Assembly (NCBI GenBank): GCA_023264315.1
Contig: JALQST010000001.1
Location: 1,544-33,543, forward strand
DNA length: 32,000 nucleotides
Direction: 5' to 3'
From: Nodosilinea sp. BSH.14
Lineage (GTDB): Bacteria; Cyanobacteriota; Cyanobacteriia; Phormidesmidales; Phormidesmidaceae
A program made the position numbers and the translations under genes. A model generated the notes under the pieces. It was not told the origin of the DNA. It was given only the letters and a program-made list of their open reading frames with translations, and did not search any database. Below are positions 22,264-30,502 of this stretch, in pieces (positions within the stretch are counted from its first letter, which is position 1; every line of letters begins with the position of its first letter).

Positions 22264-22411
22264 ACCTGAGCCCGTCGTCCCCCTGTGTGATCATCGTCGG
22301 TGCTGCGCCGAACGTGGCAACGGTGCCCCTAGGGAAATGCCTCTAGGGAAAATTGACATCGACGCCAAAAATTCGTTTGATGGGCACATTCTCTATCTTC
22401 CACTATTTGCC

Positions 22412-24013
22412 ATGGCCGCTGCTTCAGTTCAATCGGGTCGCGGGGTAATTTCGGCGGGGCATCCGCTGACGGCTGAATCTGGGGCGGCGATGCTGCGCCA
22501 AGGGGGTAATGCCTTTGATGCGGCGGTGGCGGCGGCGTTCACGGCCTGCATTACCGAGTCAATTTTGACGTCCCTGGCGGGGGGAGGCTTTTTGCTGGCC
22601 CACACCGCCGAGGGTGAAAACCGCCTGTTCGACTTCTTTTGCCAAACGCCCCGGTGCAAAGTTCCCGCCGATCAACTTCAGTTTTTCCCTATCCAGGCCA
22701 ACTTTGGCGACACGGTGCAGGAATTTCACATTGGCCTAGGATCCGTGGCGGTGCCGGGAACCTTGGCCGGATTGTTGACCGTACATGAACAACTGGGGCG
22801 CTTACCCCTCAAAACCGTGATGGCCCCCGCCCAGCACTGGGCCACCCAGGGAATCACCGTTAACGGATTCCAAGCCTACTGTTACCAGCTTTTGGCCAGC
22901 ATCCTCACGGCCACCCCCGCCGCCCGTGCCCTCTATGCCCCCCAGGGGACGCTGCTGAAGGAGGGGGATCGGTTTAGCCTGCCCGATTTCGCGGCGTTTT
23001 TGGATCAAATCGCCCAGGACGGAGCCGCCCTGATGTACCAAGGCTCTCTGGCAGATCAGATTATCCAGGCCAGCACCAGTCAGGGCGGCTACCTGAGAAT
23101 GGAGGATTTGCAGCAGTATCAGGTGATTGAGCGTCAGCCCTTGGCGATCCCCTACCGCGATGCCCTGCTGATCACCAACCCACCCCCCAGTTCTGGCGGC
23201 GCACTCATTGCCTTTGCGCTGGAACTCTTGGCCACCGCCGACCTCAGCGACCACGGCAGCCCCCGCCATGTGGGCATCCTGCGCGAAGTGATGCGCCTCA
23301 CCAACCTGGCCCGCCAGGACGGCTACGATGCCCATTTGTATCGGGCAGACGTTTTAGAGGAATTTCTCGGATCCCAGCACCTCGCGCCCTATCGCCAGCA
23401 GTTGATGGATGCCCTAGGATCCACCGCCTGCAACAAGTGGGGCAGCACCACCCACATCAGCGTCATCGATGGTGAGGGCAACGCCGTCAGCATGACCACT
23501 TCCAACGGCGAAGGTTCGGCCTACGTGATCCCCGGCACTGGGGTGATGCTGAACAACATGCTAGGGGAAGAAGACCTCAACCCCAATGGTTTCCACCAGT
23601 GGCAGCCCAACCAGCGCATTTCGTCGATGATGGCCCCCACCATGGTTCTAGAACAGGGTAAGCCTCGGCTGGTGCTGGGCTCGGGCGGGTCAAACCGGAT
23701 TCGCACCGCCATTTTGCAGGTGGTGTCCAACGTGCTGGATTTTGGCATGGACATCGAGGCCGCTGTGACTGCCCCCCGCATCCACTGGGAGCGGGGATCG
23801 TTTCACCTAGAACCGGGCTATGACCGCGAGATCCTGACCCAGCAGGGGATTGGGGTCGAAGACGACTGTACCTGGTGGCAATCGCCCAATATGTTCTTTG
23901 GCGGCGTCCATGCCGTAGGTCGTTCTGAAGACGGGACGTTCTCCGGCATTGGCGATGCCCGCCGCAGTGGGGCCTGTGTGGTTGTGAACGAAGTCCGTGG
24001 ATCAAGGCTCTGA
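22412..24013 (+). CDS. ggt: Gamma-glutamyltransferase family protein
   Basis: [30 protein letters not shown]..., autoprocessing/nucleophile context [23 protein letters not shown], and GGSNRI. The start is set at MAAASVQ (22412) rather than the track start 22337. Confidence 0.9.
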
Positions 24014-24706
24014 TGCGGCTGAGGCTGGGCCATCCTGCTGCTGTTTAACCAAATCCAGCCCCCAGGACGTACCGATGCGGGTGGCTCCGGCTTGGACGAG
24101 GGCGAGGGCTTGCTCGGCGGTGCGGATGCCCCCGGAGGCTTTGACCCCGACGCGGCCCTGGGCCATTTCTGCCAACTGACGCACAGCCGCCACCGTGGCT
24201 CCCCCCTGCCATCCGGTGCTAGTTTTGAGGAAAGCTACCCCCGCATCCATGCAGATTTCGGCGGCTAGGGAAATTTCCGATGGGGTCAGTACCGCCGTTT
24301 CCAGGATGGCCTTCACCGGTTGCCCGGTTTCTTCGCAGATGGTGGCGATTTCTTTGTGGATGGCGTCGTGTTGCCCGGATTTCAACCAGCCGAGGTTAAT
24401 CACCACATCCAACTCCGTCGCGCCGTTTTCCACGGCTTCCTGGGCTTCATAAAGCTTGGTGGCCGCCGTGGTCGCCCCCGTGGGAAAGCCAATCACCGTA
24501 CAAATCTGCACCGGGCGCTGGTGCAGCCGTTCCCTCGCCTGCCGCACGTAGGCCGGAGCAATGCAGACAGCCGCAAACCCAAAGCGGTCGGCCTCGTCGC
24601 ACCACTGGGCGATTTGGTCGGGGGTGGCGGTGGGCACCAGCAGCGTATGGTCAATCAGGGGGGCTAGGTCGATGGTTTCTGCGGTAGAAAAGAGTCCTTG
24701 AACCAT
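24002..24706 (-). CDS. deoC: Deoxyribose-phosphate aldolase
   Basis: [42 protein letters not shown], Schiff-base Lys context FLKTSTG, and [10 protein letters not shown]. Its 3' end overlaps ggt by 12 nt (convergent). Confidence 0.9.
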
Positions 24707-24734
24707 GGGGATGTCTCCGTGGGGTGATACGCGC

Positions 24735-24900
24735 CTACTTGGGTGATCCTACACGGACACGGAGAGCCGCCCATGGACATCGTGCAGGCTGCGACTGAAT
24801 TATGTTAAAGGTCAATGCTGCGATATTTCTTGGCGAGTTTGCGAAGGCTTCGGTTAAAGGTGGGTGAGGCTTCAACTTAAATTCTGGGCTGGTCAGTCAT
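24735..24900 (-). pseudogene. Decayed RelE/ParE-family toxin gene
   Basis: Hand translation from an ATG overlapping the upstream ORF's stop (ATGACTGA) gives MTDQPRI*VEASPTFNRSLRKLAKKYRSIDL*, with two in-frame TAA codons. A shifted frame then gives ...[24 protein letters not shown]. The pattern ..F.R.LRKLAKKYRSI..DL...I..L then ...RVRVG matches the cyanobacterial RelE/ParE toxins I recall. The gene is truncated just before the deoC start. Confidence 0.45.
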
Positions 24901-25132
24901 TTTCTAGACCTTCCCATAGTTGTGAGACAGAAATGGTTTGGCCTATCATGGCTTCGTGCCAAGCTTGCTTGAAGTCTTCCAATAGGTCTGCTTGCGAAGG
25001 TTCGTCATCATCGGTTGTCTCTGGAATTAAGACAATAACCTCTACACGACTATTTTTGTCGAGAACGAGAGATTGATCTAAGGTAAGCTGTCCTTGCTCA
25101 TCAATCGCTCCCATGACTTTTAGTGCTTTCAT
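24893..25132 (-). CDS. Small antitoxin-like protein (orphaned partner of the decayed toxin)
   Basis: MKALKVMGAIDEQGQLTLDQSLVLDKNSRVEVIVLIPETTDDDEPSQADLLEDFKQAWHEAMIGQTISVSQLWEGLEND. The N-terminal beta-rich segment (..IDEQGxLxLDQ.L......V.VIVL), acidic linker and ..ELW tail follow the layout of small cyanobacterial antitoxins. Its stop overlaps the toxin-remnant start. Confidence 0.5.
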   Translation of the reverse strand: MKALKVMGAIDEQGQLTLDQSLVLDKNSRVEVIVLIPETTDDDEPSQADLLEDFKQAWHEAMIGQTISVSQLWEGLEND

Positions 25133-25276
25133 ATTTAATCCACTATGGTTTTAGTCGTTGCTTTCAACCAGAATCCAAGTCAGTTTTAGCTGTTCGATAA
25201 TTGAGCGGTGATGAATAGATGGAAGAAAACCAGATAGGTCACATGAATTTCTAGGTATCATTGATACTTGTCTAAG

Positions 25277-26077
25277 TTATTCTTCAGATTGAGACATCAA
25301 CCTGATTTCCTCGTCAGTTATGTCGTTTCTGCCAACTAACCTGTAATGGCGCTCATCAACGACTGATAGATGAAAAATATCATCACTTTCTTCAACTTCT
25401 AGCGCTAAAATAGCTACCTCATGTTCAGATAGAAATTGTAATGCAATGGGTTTGCAAATTGCATTCGGATAGCGATGCTTGCAAAACTCTACGTCTTGCA
25501 TGACTTGCACTATACCAAATCTATCTCCTGGAGATTTGGCCTGACAAGGTATAACAAAGTGTGAGCCTCTTTTGTTGACACCGAGATACACTTCATCAAT
25601 TTCAATTTGGCCAATATTTTTGATGGTTGTTCTAAGGTGGTTCTGAATAGAGTAACAAGTTAATCCAGTAAAAATATCAATAAGTCGGTTATAGCGGACT
25701 TTTGTAAGGAGTGCTTGTTCATCCGTCCCCGGAGCATACCTCCTAACGATTTCAGGTGTGGCGTCTGGAATTTTTATTTTTTGTCGGTTAGTGGTGGGTG
25801 CAATTTTACCAGGTGATGCCAACCTAAACTCATAGGTACTAATTCCTGTTCCTACTATGATCCATTCATAGCCAGACTCACATGTCATTTTGATTGACTC
25901 AGGCAATTCTCTGCGAAATCTGTATGAGTATGGAATGTCGCCAAGGTTTTTAATGCGTGAAATACCCAGATCATCACACGCCTGTGCCAATTCATCACGA
26001 TCAAAGGGAACCTTGATGTTGCCATCAACATAGTTCTTGATAAAAACTCTTTCGATAATATGGTCGTACTTGCTCAT
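25277..26077 (-). CDS. Candidate Type II restriction endonuclease (family not recognised)
   Basis: It starts 1 nt after the C5-MTase stop (TAG-c-ATG on the minus strand). A PD-(D/E)XK-like arrangement IEID161EVYLGVNKRGSHFVIPCQ179AK181 lies in the C-terminal half. The N-terminal about 90 aa could be a DNA-recognition module. Confidence 0.55.
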   Translation of the reverse strand: MSKYDHIIERVFIKNYVDGNIKVPFDRDELAQACDDLGISRIKNLGDIPYSYRFRRELPESIKMTCESGYEWIIVGTGISTYEFRLASPGKIAPTTNRQKIKIPDATPEIVRRYAPGTDEQALLTKVRYNRLIDIFTGLTCYSIQNHLRTTIKNIGQIEIDEVYLGVNKRGSHFVIPCQAKSPGDRFGIVQVMQDVEFCKHRYPNAICKPIALQFLSEHEVAILALEVEESDDIFHLSVVDERHYRLVGRNDITDEEIRLMSQSEE

Positions 26078-26078
26078 G

Positions 26079-27410
26079 CTACACTCTCGCCAGTCGTTTT
26101 CTCTTGGGAATTACATCATCTGGAATATTCCAGTATTTTGATGATTGACCCATATTGAAGCGCAATAACTCTTCATCCTGCTGATTTAATGTGTAGGCTT
26201 CAAAGTCTATCTCATCTAAATCCATAGCCTTGATAACTTGCCTCCCTAAAGATTTAGACAGAAATGGAATGACTGAATTTCCAATTTCTCTAAATCCGTG
26301 CCAAATCGTGTTATGGAAACGAAACCAGTCAGGAAAGGTATGTAATCGTGCGGCTTCTCGTACAGTAATACACCGAGGTTCGGAGTAGTGTATTGGTCTG
26401 GGTGCAGTGTATGCGCCTTTGTCGCTAGCTGTTCCAGCCCTTAAGGTATTACATTGGCCATTAATTGCTAGTTTAAAGAATCTACTTGTTCTTTCTACGC
26501 TGCCTGGATTAGTTGCCCTAAATTTCTCAATCGATGTTTGGGTATGCTTAGAACCAATGTGGCCATAAACCTTGTTTGAGACTAATCTCCTATGACACAG
26601 TGAATATTCAGCGTTTGGCTGGATCGAAAAATTATGCCTTAATCCTGAATAGTCTAATTTCGATGTATCTATGCCATTATCACCTTTAGTAAAGGCACTA
26701 TGTTTTGCTAAATCATGGATAGCTTCTCCGCAGGTTGACAGCGGCAATAAGCCTATATTGCACAATAGCCCTGCTGAATCAATATCTGCATGAGTGGGTA
26801 AAGGATACCTGGCCTTATTAACATCTAGCCGCGAGCCTAAAAGAATTAGTCTTTTCCTTGTTTGCGGTGCTCCATACAGAGAGGCATCCAGAACAGATAT
26901 GGGTTTATCAATAACATATCCAACACTTTCAAGCTCAGAAATCAATTCGTCTAAGAATCGTCTATGTCTCCCTGATGCCATGCCAGGAACATTTTCAAAG
27001 ATAAAATATTTTGGCTTTATTTCCTTGATCATCCGAACATACTCGAATACCAATACATTTCTAGGATCTCCAAGTTGTCGCTTGCCGATGGAAGAAAAAC
27101 CTTGGCAGGGCGGTCCACCTGCAATCAGATCTATTTCACAGGAAAATTCGTTGTGTTCTATGGCGTTGAGAAGTTCTTGTGAAGTGAGTTGAGAAATATC
27201 TTTGCAAATCGTCGCACTATAAGGAAAGTTAAAATGATGGACTAGGGCATGAATGGCATCAAACTCCACAGCCGCAGCAATATCAAAGCCCGCTGCTTCT
27301 AAGCCGAGAGACATTCCGCCACATCCGGAGAAAAGGTCTATAGCTACGGGTCTTTTCATCGTCTGAATACGTCTTTTTTCCGTATAGATAGGTTTGCAGG
27401 CTGGAATCAT
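26079..27410 (-). CDS. DNA (cytosine-5)-methyltransferase
   Basis: Motif I AIDLFSGCGG, motif IV GGPPCQGFS, motif VI FENVPG, motif VIII QTRKRLIL, motif IX TVREAARLHTFPD and motif X EIGNSV, with a variable target-recognition region between VIII and IX. The likely true start is MKRPVAIDLF (about 27359), 17 codons inside the track ORF. Confidence 0.92.
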   Translation of the reverse strand: MIPACKPIYTEKRRIQTMKRPVAIDLFSGCGGMSLGLEAAGFDIAAAVEFDAIHALVHHFNFPYSATICKDISQLTSQELLNAIEHNEFSCEIDLIAGGPPCQGFSSIGKRQLGDPRNVLVFEYVRMIKEIKPKYFIFENVPGMASGRHRRFLDELISELESVGYVIDKPISVLDASLYGAPQTRKRLILLGSRLDVNKARYPLPTHADIDSAGLLCNIGLLPLSTCGEAIHDLAKHSAFTKGDNGIDTSKLDYSGLRHNFSIQPNAEYSLCHRRLVSNKVYGHIGSKHTQTSIEKFRATNPGSVERTSRFFKLAINGQCNTLRAGTASDKGAYTAPRPIHYSEPRCITVREAARLHTFPDWFRFHNTIWHGFREIGNSVIPFLSKSLGRQVIKAMDLDEIDFEAYTLNQQDEELLRFNMGQSSKYWNIPDDVIPKRKRLARV

Positions 27411-27544
27411 AGCGGGTTTCAGTGGAATGCGGTATAGACAAGGGGCTTAAGCCTCTTGTTCACAGGACTGGATTTGCTTAGGTATACCTCATTTATTAGA
27501 GAACTGCTATATCTACGTTCTGAATCAATGCAAAATATGGCAAA

Positions 27545-28570
27545 TTATAACTCATCTATTTGACATCCCTGGCTTTTGGCAATTTCGAGGATCGGACGAA
27601 TGTTGCCAATTCCCCATTGGTTGCAAACAGCAATCACTTTTCCTTCTCCAGTTTCAAGTAATTGTTCTTCGTTTAGGAAATAGCGTTTTGATCCTCCTTT
27701 GGCTTCAGCTTTCTCTAGCAAGGCTACAACGCCATAGCTGCCATGAATAGTATCGGGAAATATTTGTCGTAGCTCTTCAAAAGTTGTATCTGGATGTGTC
27801 TGAAGATAGTGAGTAACAATAGCTAGTACAAGCTGGCGTTTATTGTAAGTCTTTCCCAAGAATTGATATTGTGTCTTGTCCTTGCTAGAATTAGCAACGG
27901 CTCGTTGAGCTGACACTTGTTCTCGAACTTTTACCTGATACTCTTCAGCTTCCGGCAAGGGAATTATCTGTTCAATATCAAGTAGTAGTTCTTCGCCAAG
28001 TCTATAGGGCTGTAGGCGAACGCAGCGAATATCCAAGTCACGCTTATTAAGCCACATCACAGATGTGGTTAGTTCTTTAGAGAAATTTGCGGAGGCGAGG
28101 ATAATCCTGACATCTTTGGGAAATTGCTCTTCTAATGAGTCACTCCAACCCAAGAAATTAAGAATTTCCTCTTCAGCATTTTTATCAATACATCGCTTAT
28201 CTAAATATTGCTGATGAATTTCGACAGCTCGCTTGAAAGTCAGCGTAGAAACCATCGCAGCATAGCGTAGCGCTTGCAATTCCATATGAGCGCCCGTTTC
28301 ATCTCTCTTCAGCTCGATGACCACTAAATTTGCTTGCTTGTCAATGCCAAGTAAATCAATTCTCCTAGCCCCTTCAGTCCACTCTGAAAACTCCTCAGCA
28401 ATTACTAGGGTGTCTGGAGAAATTACCGTGATCTTATCTCTCAAGGCAGCTTGAAGATCAGTTCGTTCTTGAATGCCTTCTGTTCCAAACTGCGTACTCT
28501 TGATCTCGATGATTTGCTTATCCTTAAAGGTATAAATAGGCATAGGCTTAGAAGTCAGACTTGTCATCAC
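27545..28570 (-). CDS. RecB/NucS-like PD-(D/E)XK nuclease fused to middle and C-terminal domains of unknown function
   Basis: RRID72LLGIDKQANLVVIE86LK88RDETGAHMELQALRYAAMV matches the NucS/DUF91-type core (G.iDLL..D..G.lVViElKR......v.Q.lrY). It is followed by a region ending ...IRCVRLQPYRLGEELLLDIEQIIPLPEAEEY, and by a roughly 105-aa C-terminal module (YQFLGKTYNKRQLVLAIV...KRYFLNEEQLLETGEGKVIAVCNQWGIGNI). The start codon is GTG. Confidence 0.6.
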   Translation of the reverse strand: MMTSLTSKPMPIYTFKDKQIIEIKSTQFGTEGIQERTDLQAALRDKITVISPDTLVIAEEFSEWTEGARRIDLLGIDKQANLVVIELKRDETGAHMELQALRYAAMVSTLTFKRAVEIHQQYLDKRCIDKNAEEEILNFLGWSDSLEEQFPKDVRIILASANFSKELTTSVMWLNKRDLDIRCVRLQPYRLGEELLLDIEQIIPLPEAEEYQVKVREQVSAQRAVANSSKDKTQYQFLGKTYNKRQLVLAIVTHYLQTHPDTTFEELRQIFPDTIHGSYGVVALLEKAEAKGGSKRYFLNEEQLLETGEGKVIAVCNQWGIGNIRPILEIAKSQGCQIDEL

Positions 28571-29026
28571 CTCAGTCTAGACATTATCGATCAACTCGGC
28601 AGGGCAAGACTCGCAGCTTAAGGAATTGATCATCATCGCACTTGTGGAAACCCTATCTAGCCATTGCTTGCGCCACCATCACTACTCTTCTTCAGGAGCA
28701 GTTTCAGGACTGGCAAGGGGCACCGCCTGAGTTACGCGAATCGGGGTTTCGGTTTCACCAGACGGGGGCATTCTCCGGTGCGGCCTAGGTGAGGGTGCTG
28801 TGGGGTGGGGCGGGTAGGAGGGGCAGAAACCCGTTTCATGGTGGGCCATTGGGGGCCGCTTTGGGGGTAAAGCGCTAGGCTGACGAACCTCACAGGTGTC
28901 GATGCCTCGTTACAGGGACAACCGTTGAAGTACTGGGTCGAACGCCCTATCCCCTTGCCTATGCCTCAACATCCTGATTGAATAGGGGCATCAAAAAAGT
29001 GAACTTTTTTAAACGGGGAGTCGCCC

Positions 29027-30502
29027 ATGTACATCGTGCAGATTGCTTCAGAATGCGCTCCGGTCATCAAAGCCGGAGGTCTGGGCGATGTGGTTTATGG
29101 CCTCAGCCGCGAGCTAGAAACGCGGGGCCACTGCGTCGAAATCATTCTGCCGAAGTACGACTGTATGCGCTACGACCACATTTGGGGTCTGCACGAAGCC
29201 TACTGCGACCTGGTTGTGCCCTGGTATGGGACGGATATTCTCTGCGATGTGTATTGCGGCTGGGTGCATGGGCGGCTGTGTTTCTTCATCGAGCCCAAGT
29301 CCTGGGAAATGTTCTTCAACCGGGGCTGCTACTACGGCTGCGACGATGACCCGATGCGGTTTGCCTTCTTTAGCAAGGCGGCGATGGAATTTCTCCTCCG
29401 CAGCAACAAGCGCCCGGATGTGATCCACTGCCATGACTGGCAAACCGGGCTGATCCCGGTGATGCTGTTCGAGATTTATAAATACAACGGCATGGAGTTC
29501 CAGCGGGTGCTCTACACCATCCACAACTTCAAGCACCAGGGCATCGCCGGGGTGGATATCCTCGAAGCCACCGGACTCAATCGGCCCGAATACTACTTCC
29601 AGTTTGGTCAACTGCGCGACAACTTCAACCCCTTTGCCATCAACTTCATGCAGGGGGGCATCACCTATGCCAACCATGTCAACACCGTGTCGCCCTACCA
29701 CGCCTGGGAAGCCCAGCACACCGACCAGGGCTTTGGCCTAGGGCACACCCTCCACACCCACCAGTACAAATTCTCCGGCATCCTCAACGGCCTAGACTAC
29801 GAGGTCTGGAACCCGGAGGTGGATCGCTATATTCCCCATCACTACGGCATTTCCACCTTTGAAGACAAGGTACTGAACACCAAGGGGCTACGGGAACGGC
29901 TGATGCTGGCCCACGGCGATAAGCCCATCGTCGCTTTCATTGGCCGTTTGGATGACCAAAAGGGCGTTCACCTCGTCCACCACGCCATTTACTACACCCT
30001 CAGCCGAGGCGGGCAGTTTGTGCTGCTGGGTTCCGCCACCGAAAAGGGCATTAACGACTGGTTCTGGCACGAAAAGCTGCACCTGAACGACAACCCCGAC
30101 GTACATTTGGAGCTTGGCTTCAACGAAGAACTGGCCCACTTGATCTACGCCGGATCGGACATGATTGTGGTGCCCAGCAATTTTGAACCCTGCGGCCTCA
30201 CCCAGATGATCGGCCTCAAGTACGGCACGGTGCCCATCGTGCGCGGCGTGGGCGGCTTGGTGAACACCGTGTTTGATTGGGACTACGACGGCTACCACGA
30301 ACCGGAGGAGCGCAACGGCTTTGTCTTCTTCCAAAGCGACACTGTGGCTCTAGAATCCGCGATGGATCGGGCCTTTGACATTTGGGAAAAAGAGCCCAAA
30401 CTCTTCCAGCAAATCGCCCAGCAGGGAATGCAGTACGACTTTTCCTGGAATCAGCCCGGTCAGGACTATGTGGCGCTTTACGATCACATCCGCCACAAGT
30501 AG
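29027..30502 (+). CDS. glgA: Glycogen synthase (GlgA2-type)
   Basis: MYIVQIASECAPVIKAGGLGDVVYGLSRELETRGH... over 491 aa, with a C-terminal SNFEPCGLTQMIGLKYGTVPIVRGVGGLVNTV motif. Confidence 0.95.
   Translation: MYIVQIASECAPVIKAGGLGDVVYGLSRELETRGHCVEIILPKYDCMRYDHIWGLHEAYCDLVVPWYGTDILCDVYCGWVHGRLCFFIEPKSWEMFFNRGCYYGCDDDPMRFAFFSKAAMEFLLRSNKRPDVIHCHDWQTGLIPVMLFEIYKYNGMEFQRVLYTIHNFKHQGIAGVDILEATGLNRPEYYFQFGQLRDNFNPFAINFMQGGITYANHVNTVSPYHAWEAQHTDQGFGLGHTLHTHQYKFSGILNGLDYEVWNPEVDRYIPHHYGISTFEDKVLNTKGLRERLMLAHGDKPIVAFIGRLDDQKGVHLVHHAIYYTLSRGGQFVLLGSATEKGINDWFWHEKLHLNDNPDVHLELGFNEELAHLIYAGSDMIVVPSNFEPCGLTQMIGLKYGTVPIVRGVGGLVNTVFDWDYDGYHEPEERNGFVFFQSDTVALESAMDRAFDIWEKEPKLFQQIAQQGMQYDFSWNQPGQDYVALYDHIRHK

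Follow-up and report, generated by a model that had tools for sequence, protein, structure and literature searches.

The DNA analyzed here is a 32-kb window of the genome of the filamentous cyanobacterium Nodosilinea sp. BSH.14 (contig JALQST010000001.1, positions 1,544 to 33,543; all positions below are counted within the window, in nucleotides, nt). Our subject is a defence islet, an AT-rich block of about 3.9 kb between deoC (24706..24002, minus strand; PF01791) and glgA (29027-30502, plus strand; PF08323 and PF00534), with compositional boundaries at 24801 and about 28650. The coding capacity of the islet is entirely on the minus strand, where four intact open reading frames (ORFs) and one remnant stand in a row. 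Read from the glgA side, they encode a nuclease of the PDC-S11/Madara family (332 amino acids, aa; 27545..28543), a C5-cytosine methyltransferase (C5-MTase, 426 aa; 26079..27359), a type II restriction endonuclease (REase, 266 aa; 25277..26077), an intact, toxin-less antitoxin of the RelN family (79 aa; 24893..25132), and a truncated, inactivated RelE/ParE toxin (24801..24900). The region upstream of the PDC-S11 gene (28544..28681) forms the right edge of the foreign block, with the shift in composition at about 28650.

The GC content was 0.413 over 24800-28650 and 0.586 in the rest of the window. At third codon positions (GC3) it was 0.35-0.38 for the four islet genes, compared with 0.71-0.77 for ggt, deoC, glgA, and def. 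The tetranucleotide L1 distance, calculated in 2-kb windows against the rest of the sequence, gave z = 20-27 inside the islet and background level on both sides. The compositional anomaly is real and far beyond chance. A preliminary description of this DNA, made from the letters, had proposed an AT-rich islet with five co-oriented frames between deoC and glgA at 24735-28660; all three measures deviate from the flanks, the frames are there as four intact ORFs and the RelE/ParE remnant, the limits lie within about 70 nt of the refined ones, and profile matches identify both flanking genes as named. From the evidence that follows, the islet is very probably a composite defence block that was imported.

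The MTase and the REase form a predicted type II restriction-modification (R-M) cassette. The MTase ORF is open from 27410 (443 aa) and reads 426 aa from M18 (27359), the residue at which the alignment with the PADLOC model MTase_II begins (PDLC03326, E = 5e-150). It matched PF00145 over its full length (profile positions 4-323 of 324, E = 5e-67) and TIGR00675 with 181.5 bits against a cut-off of 100.65, and its translation shows the motifs DLFSGCGG, GPPCQGFS, and ENVPG. Its stop codon is separated from the REase ATG by a single base, and the REase gene is translationally coupled to it. The REase covered positions 4-256 of the 260 of the PADLOC model REase_II (PDLC03404, E = 2e-100); searches of Pfam, NCBIfam, and the PDB gave no match. 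Its family is very large, with more than 7,500 homologues at 65-90% identity in cyanobacteria, Vibrio, Rhodoferax, Anaerolineae, and others, and in the contexts examined it was always paired with a C5-MTase. The invariant residues are E159, D161, E162, Q179, and K181, and the arrangement D161...Q179-x-K181 is compatible with a variant of the PD-(D/E)XK motif. The AlphaFold (AF2) model of the REase had a pLDDT of 70 and gave weak Foldseek matches to PD-(D/E)XK-type proteins (best E = 0.02; Cas4-like ACE1 and RecU). As to specificity, the names in the source records say only "endonuclease", and the literature on the R-M system of Arthrospira (AplI) gave no usable link. Both the C5-MTase and the 266-aa endonuclease candidate of the preliminary description are thus borne out, the latter by its model match and by an M-R pair that is conserved elsewhere.

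The search for RelN (NCBIfam NF050107) revealed a full-length match with E = 2.5e-30 and 104.9 bits against a cut-off of 70, which gives the ORF first called antitoxin-like a family. The protein is 63% identical to a protein of Picosynechococcus PCC 7002 plasmid pAQ6 that is encoded upstream of a RelE/ParE toxin. When that 115-aa toxin was used as a tblastn query against the whole window, its residues 1-29 aligned to 24900..24814 with 55% identity (E = 3e-5), and the remaining three-quarters had no match in the window. Of the toxin gene, roughly codons 1 to 30-33 are left, interrupted in frame by a stop at codon 8, and the start of this remnant overlaps the relN stop codon; a fragment of 31 residues is too short to be scored by Pfam. 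The decay of the toxin had been noticed before, and by these alignments no functional addiction module remains. The relN gene is intact in every population contig. In two population variants (L092 and L096) its stop codon, at window positions 24893-24895, is lost (TGA to TGC or TGG), so that the antitoxin runs 6-7 residues into the relE remnant; the L092 gene also has a one-codon deletion. Speculatively, the orphan RelN may be a recent leftover or may be kept as an anti-addiction or regulatory factor.

The first gene of the islet matched the PADLOC model of PDC-S11 (PDLC04909; E = 6e-124) from profile position 1 to 332 of 347. The ORF finder gave a form of 341 aa starting at GTG, compared with 332 aa in the gene calls on identical contigs and in all close homologues. 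The PADLOC alignment of the longer form begins at residue 10, and an exact-protein look-up returned no record of that form, which is probably nine residues too long. The Pfam domain NucS_C was found with E = 1.5e-3, a score under the Pfam cut-off, and phmmer aligned the catalytic stretch, motif included, with Pyrococcus NucS (2vld). The AF2 model of the protein had a pLDDT of 84, and its top Foldseek matches in the PDB were NucS (2vld) and EndoMS (5gke), with E = 6e-5 to 1.5e-4 and probability 1.0, followed by the defence nucleases SduA and HamA. At the domain level, the NucS-like nuclease of the preliminary description therefore holds; the PDC-S11/Madara family is the more precise assignment.

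PDC-S11 has been studied in E. coli ECOR34, where its gene is divergent from brxA of a BREX locus (bioRxiv preprint, September 2026; 10.64898/2026.09.05.749240). The authors, who renamed the protein Madara, reported that it defends when cloned alone and that it restricts Tevenvirinae and wild-type T4, whose cytosine is glucosylated hydroxymethylcytosine (glucosyl-hmC, 5ghmC), and not T4 with unmodified cytosine. They described an N-terminal NucS-like PD-(D/E)XK domain and a C-terminal EVE-like domain, and the D63A exchange abolished defence (10.64898/2026.09.05.749240). The full-length Madara subtype occurs in 549 of 5,426 complete E. coli genomes. In one strain, TK3896, the gene divergent from the brxA of BREX-1 encodes a 332-aa protein recorded as a "PDDEXK family nuclease". 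This protein matched the same model (PDLC04909, E = 7e-114), and its alignment with the window protein covered 331 residues at 47% identity (E = 8e-105); the two share D63, E77-x-K79 (E77-L-K79 in the window protein), and the identical stretch DKQANLVVIELKRDETGAHMELQALRYAAM. Other PDC-S11 subtypes have only the first approximately 200 residues in common and a DUF4268 C-terminus. By these alignments the window protein is a member of the Madara subtype. Its sequence and its structural model indicate an N-terminal NucS-like PD-(D/E)XK domain; the C-terminal part is a putative sensor of modification, and by analogy with the E. coli homologue its activity would depend on DNA modification. The C-terminal approximately 110 residues align with the E. 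coli protein, and the whole-chain fold search returned the nuclease half only. Two points count against this picture: Pfam detected no EVE domain in the window protein at E <= 0.1, and the TK3896 protein was equated with the ECOR34 Madara from gene arrangement and model matches, without the ECOR34 sequence.

Two relatives show the company that such genes keep. In E. coli TK3896 (L187:137-10935), one cluster beside nan and fim genes comprises pglX, brxC, brxB, and brxA of BREX-1, the gene of the 332-aa Madara-type nuclease, and that of a "phosphorothioated DNA-binding restriction endonuclease". In a Shigella flexneri plasmid (NZ_CP058829.1; L186:1-6627), a type I R-M operon has a gene for a DUF4268-type relative between its hsdS and hsdR, and copies related to that gene are present in 357 plasmid records, mostly from Klebsiella.

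The site itself was compared with that of relatives. GlgA was 96% identical to the protein of Phormidium sp. FACHB-1136 (locus L007) and 84-88% identical to those of Nodosilinea species. Among the glgA loci of relatives, 80 in number, no other gene was common with the window, even at 96% GlgA identity, and no islet gene was found. A metagenome scan based on DeoC found the empty site (QLAH01000273.1, locus L098; DeoC 88% and GlgA 94% identity). There deoC and glgA diverge, 198 nt separate the two start codons, and islet genes are lacking in between. The islet is therefore an insertion. The preliminary description had proposed looking for adjacent deoC and glgA in a relative without the islet, and this metagenomic genome provides the case; a gene set conserved across the clade, which it had named as an argument against import, is contradicted by the 80 loci. 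Every contig with an identical DeoC, GlgA, or PDC-S11, from several independent samples, carries the islet with at least 98.7% identity and the same junction, and exact-protein look-ups of glgA, deoC, REase, and PDC-S11 turned up no allele without the islet. The islet is fixed in the species.

The left junction carries a scar. The first approximately 50 nt past the deoC start (24707..24758) align with the L098 spacer and represent the retained deoC-proximal part of the ancestral deoC-glgA spacer. They are followed at 24759..24800 (plus strand) by a second, diverged version of the start of glgA, from the ribosome-binding site through the ATG to codon 9. This orphan glgA start, the left copy of a direct repeat that we call D1, is identical to the real glgA start (29013-29054) at 34 of 42 positions. 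No direct match in the region scores higher, and in 60 shuffles the agreement averaged 26 and never exceeded 28 of 42. With the glgA starts of FACHB-1136 and L098 the orphan copy agrees at 33 of 42 positions. The relE remnant begins directly after it, and the left junction was located to 24800/24801, with glgA codon 9-10 on one side and relE codon ~33 on the other. We found no tRNA in the 32-kb window, no Rfam element in 24000-29500, and no integrase, transposase, or recombinase among the islet ORFs, which are all accounted for and leave no space for one; a scan for promoters and terminators gave nothing above shuffled expectation. Of the earlier statement that no integrase, transposase, tRNA target, or flanking direct repeat was recognised, only the last part fails, and with the repeat the boundaries of the islet and its mode of arrival find an explanation.

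The right side is a mosaic. Homology with FACHB-1136 starts at about 28682, left of which nothing aligns, and it ends at the glgA stop codon. The GC-rich region upstream of glgA (28682..29026, plus strand) is of the FACHB-1136 type: 314 nt that include the first glgA codons (28787-29100) were 96.5% identical to that strain, and L098 has a counterpart of only the last 80-100 nt or so. This region was probably imported together with the islet. The resemblance continues into the 5' third of glgA (29027..29500, plus strand), which we propose as the homologous anchor and recombination tract. The first 474 nt of glgA had 12 differences from FACHB-1136 and the remaining 1002 nt had 113, and third-position divergence was 7.6% in the 5' part compared with 27% downstream (21% and 29% from L098). 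Informative sites were FACHB-1136-like in 26 of 30 cases in the 5' part and in 57 of 98 after it (Fisher p = 0.004). Overall, the 5' tract and its upstream region were 97-99% identical to FACHB-1136, compared with about 89% downstream.

On balance, we favour arrival by one-sided homologous recombination, in the pattern of homology-facilitated illegitimate recombination (HFIR), because the orphan glgA start, the relE gene cut exactly there, the FACHB-1136-type upstream region, the mosaic 5' tract of glgA, the lack of integrase, transposase, tRNA, and Rfam element, and the same junction in every population contig all fit it. The incoming DNA would have been a linear fragment from a FACHB-1136-type relative, with the order relE' - relN - R - M - PDC-S11 - glgA upstream region - glgA 5' part. 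On the right, a homologous crossover would have taken place inside glgA near 29500; on the left, an illegitimate join to the resident glgA just after codon 9 would have truncated relE. The resident glgA would thereby have been replaced from about codon 10 to about 29500, and its start left by deoC as a 42-nt orphan scar. The event may have occurred in this lineage, or earlier elsewhere with later spread by ordinary homologous recombination. HFIR is known from naturally transformable bacteria and, in one paper, from E. coli conjugation (PMC3240628).

Several observations sit less well with arrival by HFIR. From the L098 spacer, about 130 nt next to the retained stretch have no counterpart here, a loss outside the simple model that needs a later, second deletion. 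The 5' end of glgA is generally more conserved, as its lower divergence from L098 also indicates, and this accounts for part of the contrast between the 5' and 3' parts. The orphan copy is 19% diverged from the current glgA start and the imported tract only 2-3% from FACHB-1136, a weak objection given the 42 nt involved; the copy is also further diverged than a very recent event would lead one to expect. Finally, no donor carrying the islet was found.

The D1 repeat could be read differently. The islet might be what is left of a site-specific integrative element with an att site overlapping the glgA 5' end. On this view, attL and attR would correspond to the two copies of D1, the replacement glgA start would have come with the element, and a later deletion would have taken the integrase and the relE 3' part. 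A direct repeat does bracket the insert, with one copy restoring the start of the target gene, and integrative elements often do restore it. FACHB-1136 moreover has different AT-rich DNA at the same breakpoint upstream of glgA, a hint of a recurrent insertion point. We nevertheless regard an integrative element as unlikely, given that there is no integrase or excisionase and no room for one, that the repeats are only 81% identical, and that a second glgA-start copy was found in 0 of the 80 relatives' glgA loci. The FACHB-1136 affinity of 345 nt of GC-rich, host-like upstream DNA and approximately 470 nt of glgA also fits a homologous tract better than an att core.

The AT-rich DNA of FACHB-1136 lies at a contig end (L007:1-250), where an ORF fragment (MGVRNYLTSEEKQELQKQLKFHEHPDIRERIL...) runs off the contig; its only plasmid match is from Kovacikia (75%, unannotated). 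An apparent resemblance to the N-terminus of an IS630-type transposase had no backing from an NCBIfam match and is not claimed. Upstream of glgA, a motif of approximately 65 nt (28945-29012; CCCTTGCCTATGCC.CAACATCCTGATTGAATAGGGGCATCAAAAA...) is almost invariant in Nodosilinea-type relatives, although no alignment is possible elsewhere in the upstream region. The motif had no Rfam match and its folding was no better than that of shuffles (z = -0.31); it is probably a promoter/operator or 5'-UTR element of glgA. A 55-aa ORF in the G-rich part of this region (28682-28849, minus strand) has a C-terminal end conserved in FACHB-1136 and no family match, and is probably not a gene. On the left side, a 19-nt inverted repeat with 79% complementarity (24703-24721 / 24758-24776; CACGGAGA-N7-CCATGG on each strand) covers the deoC start and the orphan glgA start, and so the two divergent starts look alike.

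The contexts of the closest homologues bear on whether the islet is one system. REases 81-82% identical to that of the islet are encoded with a 429-aa C5-MTase in the same M-then-R order, in unrelated neighbourhoods that lack PDC-S11 and RelN, and homologues with 48% identity are present on mobilizable plasmids of 4-6 kb in Klebsiella, Salmonella, and E. coli. Behind a REase with 90% identity, an MNT/HepT pair stands in the place of RelNE. PDC-S11 proteins with 87% identity are solitary elsewhere, some of them beside PemK or ParE toxin-antitoxin (TA) pairs. The exact combination of islet genes was found only in the source species. As judged from these homologues, the islet is a composite mini defence island of three independent modules, two putative anti-phage nuclease systems and a broken TA pair, not a single multi-gene system.

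The opposite view, in which PDC-S11, MTase, and REase act as one integrated system (for example, with the nuclease sensing methylation set by the MTase), can point to the co-orientation of the three genes, to gaps of only 134 nt and 1 nt, and to the recurrence of PDC-S11-family genes beside or inside restriction systems (BREX for E. coli, a type I R-M operon for Shigella). It is very unlikely in our view, since the nearest homologues of each part occur without the other, the exact combination is confined to one species, and the E. coli Madara defends alone when cloned (10.64898/2026.09.05.749240). The preliminary description had called the islet not a textbook unit. The combination is less unusual than it supposed: the modules assort independently, and the pairing of an R-M-type system with a PDC-S11-family gene recurs, with BREX in E. 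coli and with type I R-M in a Shigella plasmid. Nor is it rare for an island to carry a dead TA module at its edge.

Other TA pairs repeatedly flank close homologues of the defence genes (L192:5367-6927 and L194:1143-1773), with PemK and Unstab_antitox/ParE by PDC-S11 and MNT/HepT after the REase. Such defence cassettes seem to carry TA modules along at their edges.

An ancestral presence of the gene set at this site, with L098 emptied by deletion, is hardly credible: every contig of the species has the islet (at least 98.7% identity) and a single relative with an empty site was found, but a GC3 of 0.35 compared with 0.72 and a tetranucleotide z of ~25 indicate unameliorated foreign DNA, the insertion has left scars in the form of the orphan glgA start and the truncated relE, the L098 spacer is contiguous and short, and islet genes occur in 0 of the 80 relatives' glgA loci.

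An insertion hotspot by deoC was considered and rejected. C5-MTase homologues near deoC occur in 3 of 80 other loci, which is about the level of chance, as such genes are common in cyanobacteria. These homologues (43-59% identical) lie a few kb from deoC in metagenomic loci (L139:4226-5530, L162:6363-7667, and L173:10447-11664), in L162 directly upstream of it. On the other side of deoC, its 3' end and that of ggt (22337-24013, plus strand) overlap convergently by 12 nt at 24002-24013, and ggt is called as 596 aa instead of 558 aa in some population contigs.

From family membership, the MTase would mark the host DNA with 5-methylcytosine (m5C) and the REase would cut incoming DNA that lacks the mark. 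The Madara-type nuclease, judging from its E. coli homologue, would act through its NucS-like domain on phage DNA with hypermodified cytosine, so that phages able to evade the type II enzyme would also be covered. That the nuclease coexists with an m5C MTase implies that it would tolerate the m5C pattern of that enzyme. The E. coli K-12 background of the Madara preprint reportedly carries the Dcm methylase. A wider proposal takes the islet as the record of a transformation-type, one-sided capture of a ready-made defence package, in which Madara and the m5C R-M system were co-selected as a complementary pair against hypermodified and unmodified cyanophage DNA, and the orphan RelN serves as an anti-addiction factor against RelE-bearing elements. 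We offer it tentatively and consider it doubtful.

Each part of the islet belongs to a known family, and the pairing of R-M-type and PDC-S11-family genes has precedents; the islet overturns nothing in current understanding and is a well-documented, fairly ordinary defence islet. New are the Madara subtype in cyanobacteria, beside a type II m5C system, an insertion that is unusually well resolved without any mobility gene, and a very large REase family still without prototype, structure, or Pfam model. With its empty site, orphan gene-start scar, truncated toxin gene, and mosaic anchor gene, the islet offers a fully delimited case of a defence islet entering a chromosome without mobility genes. 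It extends Madara/PDC-S11 to cyanobacteria and to a type II m5C partner, in parallel to its E. coli association with BREX. In practice, genetic transformation of this cyanobacterial group is likely to be hindered by both the R-M system and the Madara-like nuclease.

Compared with known systems, the nuclease resembles the Madara of E. coli ECOR34 in its length of 332 aa, its match to PDLC04909, its PD-(D/E)XK core of D63 and E77-x-K79, and a restriction-type neighbour; it differs in that the neighbour there is BREX and here a type II m5C R-M system, and in its cyanobacterial host. The R-M genes are like mobile type II m5C M-R cassettes, with a full-length C5-MTase that has its motifs, the REase directly after it, and the same pair in many phyla and on small mobilizable plasmids, whereas this REase family is without a Pfam model, a solved structure, or an identifiable named prototype. 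As in the cyanobacterial RelN/RelE (relNEs-type) pairs, the antitoxin exceeds the NF050107 cut-off and the two genes overlap at toxin start and antitoxin stop, just as in pAQ6, but the islet toxin is cut to about 30 codons with an in-frame stop. The insertion shares with HFIR one end anchored in homologous DNA (glgA), the other apparently joined without homology, foreign DNA beside the anchor, and the lack of recombinase genes; here, in contrast, the event is read from sequence only and involves an extra deletion of approximately 130 nt beside the junction.

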